A DNA stretch of 25,011 nucleotides from an uncultured Pirellulales bacterium (GTDB lineage Bacteria; Planctomycetota; Phycisphaerae; Sedimentisphaerales; Anaerobacaceae), in assembly GCA_964397865.1 (NCBI GenBank), contig CAYNKU010000002.1, forward strand, positions 1-25,011, written 5' to 3'. The position numbers and the translations under genes are program-made. The notes beneath the pieces are model-generated. The model made no database searches and was not told the origin of the DNA. It was given only the letters and a program-made list of their open reading frames with translations. Below, piece by piece: positions 3,427-13,088 of the stretch (position 1 is the first letter of the stretch; each line of letters starts with the position of its first letter).

Positions 3427-3442
3427 TGCAATTACTGTGCCA
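3427..3442 (-). promoter_or_regulatory. sigma54 (RpoN) -24/-12 promoter for fliK and the TPR-GT gene
   Basis: Minus strand reads TGGCACAGTAATTGCA: GG (3441-3440), N10, GC (3429-3428). Matches the TGGCAC-N5-TTGCW consensus, about 15 nt upstream of the first fliK ATG. Confidence 0.85.
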
Positions 3443-3761: not shown

Positions 3762-3777
3762 TGGCACGATAATTGCA
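3762..3777 (+). promoter_or_regulatory. sigma54 -24/-12 promoter for the flgB operon
   Basis: TGGCACGATAATTGCA: GG 3763-3764, N10, GC 3775-3776. Full match to TGGCACG-N4-TTGCW, directly upstream of flgB. Confidence 0.92.
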
Positions 3778-10045: not shown

Positions 10046-10741
10046 GTGAATAAGAAACTAATTATAATCGCATTAGCCGGCGGTCTGTTAAGCTTTGGGG
10101 CGATGTTCGTATATGCCTGGCTTATCAAGCCATCTGCGCAAACCACGGAAGTCGAGGCGGCCCAGTCGATAGATGCCACAGAGGAACCTGTTATAAAAGT
10201 TCCTGAACCGCAAACTTCTGCCAATAGTACTGCCGGGATGATCGAGAGCAAAATGAAAAAAGCTATGACAGAAGAGCAGCTTAAAAGTCTTGTTTATGAG
10301 ATACGGACGAAAATTCAAGAATATGACAATAAGCTGGAAGACCTCAAACTCCGTGAGGAGAGATTACGAGTGGCCGGTGATATGTTGAAAAAGGATATTG
10401 AGCAGCTCGATAATTTACGAATCGAACTTGCTTCGACTGTTGCCGGTCTCAAGGCCCAACGGGACAACCTGCTAAAGAGCAGGGTTGAAATTGCAGAAAA
10501 GGAAAGAAACAACCTTGTGTCAATAGCCGCCACGTATGACAAGATGGACTCAGCCAGCGCAGGTAAAATACTGACAAATATGAGCCAGGGTCAAAATAAC
10601 AGTGCCGATGACGCCGTAAAAATCCTCCACTATATGTCCGAGCGAACCAAAGCAAAGGTGCTGGCTTCTATAGCTGAGACAGACTCTCCACTTTCAGCGT
10701 ATTTTTGTAAGAGGCTAAAACAGATAGCCGAGAAAGAATGA
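10046..10741 (+). CDS. Membrane-anchored coiled-coil protein with C-terminal MgtE_N-like helical domain (YlxF/FlbB/MotE-like flagellar protein)
   Basis: N-terminal TM (LIIIALAGGLLSFGAMFVYAWL), long coiled coil, then IAATYDKMDSASAGKILTNM...AVKILHYMSERTKAKVLASI. Same position after fliJ as Bacillus ylxF; SD AGGAG before the GTG. Confidence 0.75.
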   Translation: MNKKLIIIALAGGLLSFGAMFVYAWLIKPSAQTTEVEAAQSIDATEEPVIKVPEPQTSANSTAGMIESKMKKAMTEEQLKSLVYEIRTKIQEYDNKLEDLKLREERLRVAGDMLKKDIEQLDNLRIELASTVAGLKAQRDNLLKSRVEIAEKERNNLVSIAATYDKMDSASAGKILTNMSQGQNNSADDAVKILHYMSERTKAKVLASIAETDSPLSAYFCKRLKQIAEKE

Positions 10742-10745
10742 CTCT

Positions 10746-11516
10746 ATGGACATTGCAACAATAATAGGCGTTTTATTCGGTCTTGTTGTAGTAATCGGAG
10801 CTATTGTAGCCGGCGGCGGTGCCGCGATATTTTTTGATATTCCCGCTCTGGCAATAACAATAGGCGGTATGCTCTGTGCTACAATGATACATTTTTCTCT
10901 GCCACAGTTTCTGGGGATATTTTCCGTAATCAAGAAAACCATTATAACCAAGATACCGTCGCAATCAGACTTGATTCAGAAAATGGTCAATTATTCCGCT
11001 ATCAACAGGCGCGATGGGGCATTGGCTCTGGAGCAGGAACTTCGCAATGTAAACGATTTGTTCTTTGTCAAAGGCCTACAGATGCTCATAGACGGCCAGA
11101 ATCCCGATTCAATTCGGGAACTTATGTTACTTGAAATACAATATCTTCAGGAGCGCCATTCAAACGGTAAAAAGATTCTGGAATTTATGGGGGCAGCCGC
11201 CCCTGCTTTCGGAATGATAGGAACGCTTATCGGCCTGGTCCAAATGCTAAGAAATCTTGAGTCACCTGAAACGATTGGTGCGGGGATGGCAGTAGCCCTG
11301 TTGACCACATTTTATGGCGCCTTTGCCGCCAATTTGATTTTTATACCGCTGGCAGGCAAACTGGGGATTTATTCCAAAGCCGAGACGACGGCGATGGAGA
11401 TGATTACAGAAGGCGTCTGTGCTATTGCCCGCGGCGAGAACCCGACTGCCGTTCGCGAAAAAATGCAGGCATTTGTTTCCCAAAGCAGACGTGAAGAAGT
11501 AAAGGCAAATATATAA
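10746..11516 (+). CDS. motA: Flagellar stator A subunit MotA (PomA/MotP-like)
   Basis: MDIATIIG start, RRDGALALE rotor-contact segment, APAFGMIGTLIGLVQML, GMAVALLTTFYG, EGVCAIARGENP. Confidence 0.96.
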   Translation: MDIATIIGVLFGLVVVIGAIVAGGGAAIFFDIPALAITIGGMLCATMIHFSLPQFLGIFSVIKKTIITKIPSQSDLIQKMVNYSAINRRDGALALEQELRNVNDLFFVKGLQMLIDGQNPDSIRELMLLEIQYLQERHSNGKKILEFMGAAAPAFGMIGTLIGLVQMLRNLESPETIGAGMAVALLTTFYGAFAANLIFIPLAGKLGIYSKAETTAMEMITEGVCAIARGENPTAVREKMQAFVSQSRREEVKANI

Positions 11517-12208
11517 TGGTATGTGAGAGGAAATCACCGGAATCTGATGAGGAGGCAGGTGCGCCGGAATGGATGGTAACTTTCAGCGATTGTATGACGC
11601 TGCTGTTGACATTTTTTGTGCTTCTTTTGAGCTTTTCATCCTTCGACAATATAGAAGACCTTTTTAAATTGAAAACAGTTTTTAATGAGCAGCTTTCTTT
11701 CGGTTCGCAGGAAACCGATAAAGATTCGTTTTCTCCTGCGGAATCAACCCAATTTAACGACGATCTTGACAAGGGCAGCGAAAAGCAAACTTTAGAAAGA
11801 GGGGATAAGGACAACTTAAAAAAAGAAACAGAGACATCAAATTTTCACGATCGCAAGGTGTTTTTGATTTCATCGGACAAGGTTTTTTACGGTAACGGCA
11901 GAGCTCTTTCTCTGCAGGGCCGTAAAATTCTTTCTCTAATGGCATCGTTTTTAAAAGAGATGCCAAACCGTGTAGTTATCAGTGAAAATGGAGCGGATAA
12001 CGAGAGAATTGACGAGTATTTTGGTCTGCGGCGGGCATGGAAGGTAATGGAATATTTAACAACAAAACAAGGCCTTGACAAAGGACTATTCAGCATTTCA
12101 GCAGATTCGCTCCAAAAAACCGACAATAATGACCTGCAGAATAGTTCACAGGCAGAAACCGCCCGCACACTTGAAATTGTACTGCTTGAACGGAGCATTT
12201 ACAATTGA
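11516..12208 (+). CDS. motB: Flagellar stator B subunit, paralog 1 (MotB/PomB-like; degenerate OmpA-like domain)
   Basis: PEWMVTFSDCMTLLLTFFVLLLSFS with the essential Asp (codon 11588-11590), plug helix, OmpA-like C-terminus; ATG shares one base with the motA stop (TAATG). Confidence 0.9.
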   Translation: MVCERKSPESDEEAGAPEWMVTFSDCMTLLLTFFVLLLSFSSFDNIEDLFKLKTVFNEQLSFGSQETDKDSFSPAESTQFNDDLDKGSEKQTLERGDKDNLKKETETSNFHDRKVFLISSDKVFYGNGRALSLQGRKILSLMASFLKEMPNRVVISENGADNERIDEYFGLRRAWKVMEYLTTKQGLDKGLFSISADSLQKTDNNDLQNSSQAETARTLEIVLLERSIYN

Positions 12209-12939
12209 GCCGGAAACAGCAAACAGCCGAAACAAACCGTGCTAAAGTTCCCGCGTATATCGTTACCTTCTCGGATATGGTAACACTCTTGCTGACATTC
12301 TTTGTAATGCTTTTAACCTTGGCACATGTACGGGACCCTGAACTGTTTAATGTAAGCAGGAACACATTTATAGAATACATAGAAAACTATGGACTCGGGG
12401 TTCATAAGGGCAAAAAAATAACGCCGGAATTTGACAATCTCAAAATTAAATATTTCATAAGCAGCCCCGAGAAAGATGTTTCTTTCAGAACCATAGATGC
12501 AAGAGAAGAAGAGCTTCGTCGGATTTTCAAGAAGATAAGCGAGTCTATGAAAACCACACCTTCGCAGTTGGTGGCAAAGAAGGCCAATTTTTCAGTAACC
12601 AATATTAACTTTTCACCAGGGCTGACACAATTAAATGAGCCGGCCAAAAGGTTTTTAACACAGTTTGCCACAGATTTACAGGCAAGAGGTCAGCCCCAAG
12701 CGATAAAGCTTTATGTCCTCGGCCTGGCCACAGATGCCAAAAACCAACAGCAACAGTGGATATTATCAGCCAGACGGGCTCAGGCGGTGTCAGGGTTTTT
12801 GAATGGTATCTTACCTGCAGAGCTCCAATGGCCTGTTTATTCGTGGGGAGCGGGGCCGGGAGGCCTTTGGGTTGGTGAAAACAGCCTGGTTTCCGAAAAA
12901 TCACAAATCCTCATCGCAGTACTGAGGGGGGATGATTAG
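12205..12939 (+). CDS. motB: Flagellar stator B subunit, paralog 2 (MotB-like; degenerate OmpA-like domain)
   Basis: PAYIVTFSDMVTLLLTFFVMLLTLA with the essential Asp (12274-12276), OmpA-like WILSARRAQAV; TTG start overlaps the motB1 stop (TTGA). Confidence 0.87.
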   Translation: MSRKQQTAETNRAKVPAYIVTFSDMVTLLLTFFVMLLTLAHVRDPELFNVSRNTFIEYIENYGLGVHKGKKITPEFDNLKIKYFISSPEKDVSFRTIDAREEELRRIFKKISESMKTTPSQLVAKKANFSVTNINFSPGLTQLNEPAKRFLTQFATDLQARGQPQAIKLYVLGLATDAKNQQQQWILSARRAQAVSGFLNGILPAELQWPVYSWGAGPGGLWVGENSLVSEKSQILIAVLRGDD

Positions 12940-13072: not shown

Positions 13073-13088
13073 CGGCACGCTATTTGCT
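13073..13088 (+). promoter_or_regulatory. sigma54 -24/-12 promoter for fliO-fliP-fliQ-fliR-flhB
   Basis: CGGCACGCTATTTGCT: GG 13074-13075, N10, GC 13086-13087; in the only sizeable gap of the plus-strand cluster. Confidence 0.85.

Follow-up and report, generated by a model that had tools for sequence, protein, structure and literature searches.

In a 25,011-nucleotide (nt) stretch of DNA from an uncultured planctomycete (contig CAYNKU010000002.1 of assembly GCA_964397865.1, positions 1 to 25,011; hereafter the window), a single gene for the flagellar stator subunit MotA is followed by two overlapping genes for different MotB proteins, termed B1 and B2 (genes motB1 and motB2). We found that this pair is old, that it is inherited together across much of the Planctomycetota, and that the anammox bacterium Candidatus Brocadia retains a B2 that has lost its channel aspartate but is under purifying selection. 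These findings point, at about an even chance, to a B1-B2 heterodimer as the axle inside one MotA5 ring.

The motA-motB1-motB2 operon and its conservation

The three genes, together with the residues and the translation signal referred to below, lie at the following positions of the window:

10746..11516, + strand: motA, 256 amino acids (aa), PomA/MotP-like stator A subunit with a PF01618 (MotA_ExbB) match of 101.8 bits
11516..12208, + strand: motB1, 230 aa, with a transmembrane (TM) helix carrying Asp25, a plug helix, a disordered linker and a divergent OmpA-like domain
11588..11590, + strand: GAT codon of B1 Asp25, the ion-coupling residue, invariant in a 39-sequence alignment and in all 47 B1 orthologues
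11621..11623, + strand: B1 Leu36, 11 residues after the Asp (Asp+11); 34 Leu and 13 Met among the orthologues (n = 47)
12192..12195, + strand: GGAG, putative Shine-Dalgarno sequence of motB2 as read from the sequence, 9 nt before the TTG and within the conserved B1 C-terminus
12205..12939, + strand: motB2, 244 aa, TTG start, with a TM helix carrying Asp24, a plug helix, an extra helix (residues 99-115) and an OmpA-like domain
12274..12276, + strand: codon of B2 Asp24, invariant in the B2 set of the Phycisphaerae; Ser or Ala in Brocadia B2
12307..12309, + strand: B2 Met35 (Asp+11); 33 Met and 14 Leu among the orthologues (n = 47)

The final A of the motA stop codon TAA is the first base of the motB1 ATG (11516), an overlap of 1 nt, and the tetranucleotide TTGA holds both the TTG of motB2 (12205) and the TGA of motB1 (12206-12208), an overlap of 4 nt. 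A first-pass annotation made from the letters of the sequence had already placed these open reading frames (ORFs), their overlaps and the Asp and Leu/Met residues correctly to the base.

MotA has the features of a stator A subunit: the MotA_ExbB domain, the rotor-facing Arg/Glu pair and similarity over its full length to A subunits of solved structure (E 3e-59 for Clostridium sporogenes MotA, 6YSF; 2e-54 for Vibrio PomA). Among the NCBIfam models, PomA and MotP match it best. Its Arg/Glu pair, Arg88 and Glu96, corresponds to R88 and E96 of PomA, and Thr160, Thr187 and Thr188 align with T158, T185 and T186, the three threonines of the PomA Na+ site, two of which are Ala in H+ stators (PMC10374538). 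The threonine triad in the A subunit is accompanied by Leu or Met, not Val, at Asp+11 of the B subunits, both features of Na+-type stators. Because of the triad and the marine source of the DNA, the stator is probably Na+-type, and this would apply to both B subunits.

Both B1 and B2 show the parts of a stator B subunit, that is, a TM helix with the Asp, a plug segment and an OmpA-like domain. The Pfam model MotB_plug scores above its 24-bit cut-off in both (B1 52.2 bits, B2 40.4 bits), and the OmpA matches are weaker (B1 17.4 bits, below the 27.2-bit cut-off; B2 28.3 bits). Over 24 residues around the TM Asp the two proteins are 67% identical, whereas their periplasmic parts share about 20% identity, which bears out the earlier observation that both keep the essential Asp and a near-identical TM helix and have divergent periplasmic parts. 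AlphaFold 2 (AF2) models, built with 39-sequence alignments, predict for both a TM helix, a plug-like helix, a disordered linker and a confident OmpA-like domain; the OmpA-like core of B1 has a predicted local distance difference test (pLDDT) score of about 90, and in B2 the additional helix 99-115 lies ahead of this core. Foldseek searches with the two models returned MotS-C, OmpA-C and MotB-C for each and do not discriminate B1 from B2. In contrast, profile matches to C. sporogenes MotB are much stronger for B1 (E 1e-24) than for B2 (E 2e-11), and B1 is therefore the more ancestral-looking copy as judged by these profiles.

The OmpA-like domains differ in their wall-binding motif. In B1 the loop is shorter and the elements G-H-T-D and N..LS are missing, and the Arg of the domain is invariant in both paralogs. 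As single-copy planctomycete MotBs also lack the canonical Asp of this motif, which there reads RGHA[TS]R, we do not read the motif loss in B1 as lost wall binding. The idea that B1 is a dead peptidoglycan binder and B2 the canonical one was dropped on these grounds. The RGHA[TS]R-type motif occurs in many of the single-copy loci, a set made up of L061-L078 and the loci of family f2 of the source's order.

For comparison we extracted 47 non-redundant B1/B2 pairs from the Phycisphaerae. In all 47 loci motA lies directly upstream of the pair; occurring in every one of these related loci, the gene triplet is not a product of chance. The overlap between the two motB genes is 4 nt in 39 of the 47 pairs, and motB2 starts with TTG in 24, ATG in 14 and GTG in 9. 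Across these pairs the paralogs can be told apart around the TM helix: Asp+1 is Cys in 42 of the 47 B1 and Met in every B2, at Asp-6 every B1 has Trp and the B2 proteins have Tyr or Trp, and the segment directly after the helix reads F-S-S-F-D in B1 and L/M-A-x-V-Q-D-P in B2. A motA-linked B1 without B2, or B2 without B1, was never seen in the Phycisphaerae sampled. Of 24 genomes in the source's family, 20 carry exactly two MotB_plug matches, spaced by 650-700 nt, and four carry no match; the same two-match pattern is found in most other families of the order, with a single MotB in family f2. At class level, families f7, f9 and f10 carry the pair, and the other families have one MotB. Outside the class, two MotB matches within 1 kb occur in 28 of the 75 MotB-carrying Planctomycetota genomes sampled, and in pairs throughout the phylum the first gene carries the B1 hallmarks and the second those of B2. 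The synteny survey proposed in the first-pass annotation thus returned a conserved motA-motB-motB order, and its caution that tandem motB copies might be widespread in this lineage was well placed, as they extend through the phylum. We found no publication on the pair in Planctomycetes or anammox bacteria in the literature searched. The survey shows a layout hitherto discussed for Aquifex to be the usual one across much of a large environmental phylum.

A branch with a Shimodaira-Hasegawa-like approximate likelihood ratio (SH-aLRT) support of 99 splits B1 (50 rows) from B2 (50 rows) in a tree of 121 sequences, in which the B1 and B2 subtrees mirror each other and the single-copy MotBs form a third group. 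A phylum-wide tree, from which eight rows were left out (the recent in-lineage duplicates L162 and L170 and the long branches L161 and L179), places all 58 second genes together (support 90.7) and all 57 first genes together, the latter weakly (32.7). This fits one old duplication followed by co-inheritance, with deep nodes that are not firmly resolved, and agrees with the earlier view that the duplication is old and both copies have been retained. Gene conversion was considered as the cause of the TM likeness and rejected: at identical residues, synonymous-codon identity is 0.44 within genomes versus 0.38 between genomes, and in the window itself the B1 and B2 codons differ at most synonymous sites. 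By this codon measure, the TM similarity is kept at the protein level.

Three observations concern relatives with other arrangements or TM variants. The single MotB of the third type has Ile at Asp+11 in three f2 loci (L006, L007, L012); it groups apart from B1 and B2 and may predate the duplication or have replaced the pair. Another planctomycete (L162, G269:C9:876600-881200) carries tandem MotBs that are identical in protein over the N-terminal and TM parts, differ in their periplasmic parts and come out as sisters in the tree; this duplication is recent, resembles that of Aquifex and is separate from the old B1/B2 pair. In three genomes of the source's order (L031, L032, L034), B1 and B2 share a TM variant with Ser at Asp+3, Met at Asp+6 and Ala at Asp+7, where T/L/T is usual; such parallel TM change of both paralogs between lineages is expected if both must fit the same MotA.

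Composition of the stator axle

The composition of the axle can be addressed through relatives in which one B subunit has changed. In Candidatus Brocadia (14 named loci and six genomes), B2 has Ser or Ala at the position of the channel Asp, and B1 keeps the Asp. The Brocadia/Brocadiaceae loci with an Asp-less B2 are L167, L168, L180-L183 and L190-L203; one further family (L184) also has Ser at this position of B2. A B1 without the Asp was not found in any pair examined. The Asp-less B2 ORF is intact in all Brocadia loci, and its median ratio of nonsynonymous to synonymous substitution rates (dN/dS) is 0.14, versus 0.20 for B1; by this measure the Asp-less B2 is under purifying selection. Going by what is established for stators, a B2 homodimer without the Asp could not conduct ions. 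In Brocadia, the selected Asp-less B2 must therefore work together with something else, most simply with B1 in the same ring.

One complete Brocadiaceae genome (L180, G280:C1:355800-360300) has B1 split into ORFs of 122 and 120 aa next to an intact Asp-less B2; this may reflect a frameshift, a sequencing error or a pseudogene.

In the proposed mechanism, the likeliest of those considered, B1 and B2 would be made from the same transcript by coupled translation, and the MotB membrane helix of both would sit inside the MotA pentamer. One B1 and one B2 would then form the two-subunit axle of a single MotA5 unit and would be joined via their OmpA-like periplasmic domains, with B1 keeping the ancestral channel and plug segment and B2 contributing a different cell-wall-anchoring head. 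Since the shared TM helix would fit the same MotA ring and the two proteins would be co-translated, mixed dimers would form unless they are excluded. From comparative data and predicted models we infer that B1 and B2 co-assemble, how they divide their tasks and which ion is coupled.

Co-inheritance, translational coupling, a predicted periplasmic complex and the Asp-less B2 of Brocadia all indirectly favour the heterodimer, which was already one of the two readings of the first-pass annotation, and none of them is decisive. For the complex, B1 residues 105-230 and B2 residues 96-244 reached a score of 0.87, versus 0.01 for the best of three controls, on a scale where the mark is reached by 58 of 80 solved complexes and by 2 of 110 mismatched pairs; the comparison covered the B1-B2 pair and the controls, and the score does not separate the heterodimer from homodimers.

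Several points weigh against a mixed axle. In the source organism both paralogs have the Asp, the plug helix and the invariant OmpA Arg, so that each could work as a homodimer. In E. coli, MotB Asp32 mutants are dominant-negative, which argues against one-Asp units there. Chimeras of Aquifex B1 and of Aquifex B2 each work with MotA alone in E. coli (PMC4525482). The pass of the complex score may reflect a memory of solved MotB-C homodimers in the predictor. In addition, family f2, which belongs to the source's order, has a single MotB of the third type, and the pair is thus not indispensable for motility. Finally, no RNA run matched the window DNA.

The first alternative to the heterodimer is a pair of homodimeric stators, A5B1B1 and A5B2B2, that share MotA and differ in anchoring, with mixed units being incidental. 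The difference would lie in the periplasmic head and would relate to load or to the state of the envelope. We consider this rather unlikely, but the likeliest of the alternatives. Bacteria with two stator sets are well known, and both paralogs keep the Asp, the TM helix, the plug helix and an OmpA-like fold with its invariant Arg. The activity of each Aquifex chimera with MotA speaks for it as well (PMC4525482). However, the B genes here overlap by 4 nt, have no separate promoter and never occur one without the other in the Phycisphaerae sampled. Known alternative stators, in contrast, have their own A subunit and are often separately regulated or lost. Mixed dimers would moreover be expected from near-identical TM helices and co-translation unless they are actively excluded, and for the Asp-less B2 of Brocadia a functional homodimer is not an option.

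A second alternative, which we regard as improbable, is that one paralog generates no torque and has become an accessory or regulatory protein of MotB descent, such as an anchor or a plug modulating the engagement of the stator. It would account for the loss of the Asp from B2 in at least two lineages, and the weak OmpA match of B1 (17.4 bits), its shorter loop and its missing G-H motif are in line with such a role. In the source lineage, however, the TM helix with the Asp is invariant in both proteins, which fits a helix inside MotA5, and an accessory protein placed inside the ring would in practice be the heterodimer.

The third alternative, that B1 (Leu) and B2 (Met) stators couple different ions, Na+ versus Na+/K+, is very improbable. 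It builds on the residue at Asp+11, which is Val in H+-type MotB, Leu in Na+-type MotS/PomB and Met in Bacillus alcalophilus MotS, where the change M33L abolishes K+ use (PMC3457975). This background, already given in the first-pass annotation, holds, and there is a statistical lean towards Leu in B1 (34/47) and Met in B2 (33/47). However, the conservation survey yielded all four B1/B2 combinations among the 47 pairs (L/M 24, L/L 10, M/M 9, M/L 4), with L/L in close relatives of the source's own family. Leu versus Met was hence rejected as a marker of the paralogs and, as far as these alignments go, is a tendency and not a paralog property; swappable subunits for Na+ and Na+/K+, as suggested earlier, find no comparative support, and an L/M difference that is not conserved is among the outcomes that the first-pass annotation had named as refuting. 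Other positions tell the paralogs apart, namely Asp+1 (B1 Cys, B2 Met) and the post-TM stretch Asp+15..+21, and part of the ion filter is the MotA Thr triad, which is common to both B subunits.

The heterodimer can also be put in a stricter form for the Planctomycetota as a whole, which we advance tentatively and hold to be somewhat less than an even chance. Here, the axle would be an obligate MotB1-MotB2 heterodimer in which B1 provides the Asp and the ancestral plug and B2 serves chiefly as cell-wall anchor, and a single Asp would be enough to drive the unit; the Asp-less B2 that is kept under selection in the anammox Brocadia would imply this.

If true, this would be a natural 5:1:1 flagellar stator and would offer a direct test of whether both Asp residues of the 5:2 rotary cycle are needed. 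Current stator models assume two identical MotB chains with two alternating Asp residues. Non-identical MotBs that are made together render this assumption testable, and the loss of one of the two Asp residues in relatives adds to this. Should the B proteins form alternative homodimers instead, they would represent one more, rather ordinary, way to diversify stator anchoring. The layout itself is already published for Aquifex; it is the phylum-wide conservation and the Asp-less Brocadia orthologues that make the system worth an experiment.

Flagellar cluster, promoters and source genome

The operon is placed between fliF-G-H-I-J and fliO-P-Q-R-flhB, within a flagellar gene cluster. The gene order is flgB, flgC, fliE, fliF, fliG, fliH, fliI, fliJ, a gene for a TM and coiled-coil protein, motA, motB1 and motB2, followed by a gap of 191 nt and then fliO, fliP, fliQ, fliR and flhB. 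The further features of the cluster are:

3428-3441, - strand: sigma54-type -24/-12 element before fliK
3763..3776, + strand: sigma54-type -24/-12 element (GGCACG-N4-TTGC), an exact pattern match at the head of the flgB...motB2 string
10046..10741, + strand: 231-aa TM and coiled-coil protein, weakly FlbB/YlxF-like, between fliJ and motA
13074..13087, + strand: sigma54-type -24/-12 element before fliO, in the 191-nt gap after motB2, at the start of the next operon

Three exact sigma54-type elements (GGCAC-N5-TTGC) in the window, versus 0.16 expected by chance, suggest that the flagellar operons are sigma54-driven. An exact pattern scan of the window gave no such element between 3763 and motB2, so that motA, motB1 and motB2 most likely close one long transcript, as the end of the flgB operon. 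Scans for sigma-70 promoters and terminators inside the operon returned weak consensus matches only and no clear internal promoter.

The gene at 10046-10741 sits where YlxF/FlbB sits in the operons of Firmicutes and spirochaetes, FlbB being the collar protein of spirochaetes. Its match to the NCBIfam model collar_FlbB (E 3e-4, 20.6 bits) is far below the cut-off of 110.

The source genome is a metagenome-assembled genome (MAG) in 350 contigs; according to its named relatives, it belongs to the Sedimentisphaerales (Phycisphaerae, Planctomycetota), and the window DNA was found in DNA runs of marine-sediment metagenomes. Profile searches of this 86%-complete MAG gave no further flagellar-type MotA or MotB, and motA-motB1-motB2 is the only flagellar stator operon found in it.

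Comparison with known stator systems

The closest counterpart in layout is the operon of Aquifex aeolicus, in which, like here, one motA is followed by two motB genes (Takekawa et al. 2015, PMC4525482; 2016, PMC4987623). In both systems the TM regions are alike and the periplasmic parts divergent (23% identity in Aquifex, about 20% here), and the Aquifex stator is Na+-type, in agreement with the Na+-type signatures found here. The two differ in how alike the paralogs are around the TM helix. The N-terminal and TM parts of the Aquifex proteins are 97% identical, whereas the planctomycete paralogs share 67% over 24 residues, have fixed paralog-specific residues and give no sign of conversion; they are an old, phylum-wide pair of orthologue groups. 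According to the Aquifex authors, one or two complete stator sets are usual in other bacteria (PMC4525482). In their later work, MotB1 alone did not co-purify with MotA, MotB2 alone was insoluble, and MotA, MotB1 and MotB2 were never expressed together (PMC4987623).

Vibrio PomA5PomB2 and Bacillus MotPS (8BRI, 9LJK; PMC10374538) resemble the present system in the alignment of MotA with PomA, the three threonines and the Leu or Met at Asp+11, and the predicted periplasmic folds of B1 and B2 match MotS-C and OmpA-C. Both systems, however, have a single B gene and a B homodimer, and the ion proposed here is read from the sequence. The best solved-structure match is C. sporogenes MotA5MotB2 (6YSF/8UCS), for MotA (3e-59) as well as for B1 (1e-24) and B2 (2e-11), and the TM helix and post-TM motif of B1 closely resemble those of its MotB. 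C. sporogenes differs in having a single MotB, whose OmpA motif GHTD...N..LS..RA is kept in full by neither paralog here.

Dual stators such as MotAB with MotCD or PomAB with MotAB share with this operon that more than one kind of B subunit serves a flagellum. In these systems the two A genes lie at different loci and are regulated separately, and loss of either set is possible. Here, by contrast, there is one A gene with two overlapping B genes, and among the Phycisphaerae sampled neither motA-linked B1 nor B2 stands alone.

The gliding motor AglR5-AglQ-AglS of Myxococcus also combines one A-like subunit with two different B-like subunits (PMC11761067). It is a TolQ/TolR-type, non-flagellar motor without an OmpA-like domain, and B1 and B2 do not belong to that family. 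Its heterodimeric axle inside a pentamer is modelled, by prediction only (PMC11761067), and is thus a modelled precedent that speaks in favour of the mixed B1-B2 axle proposed here.

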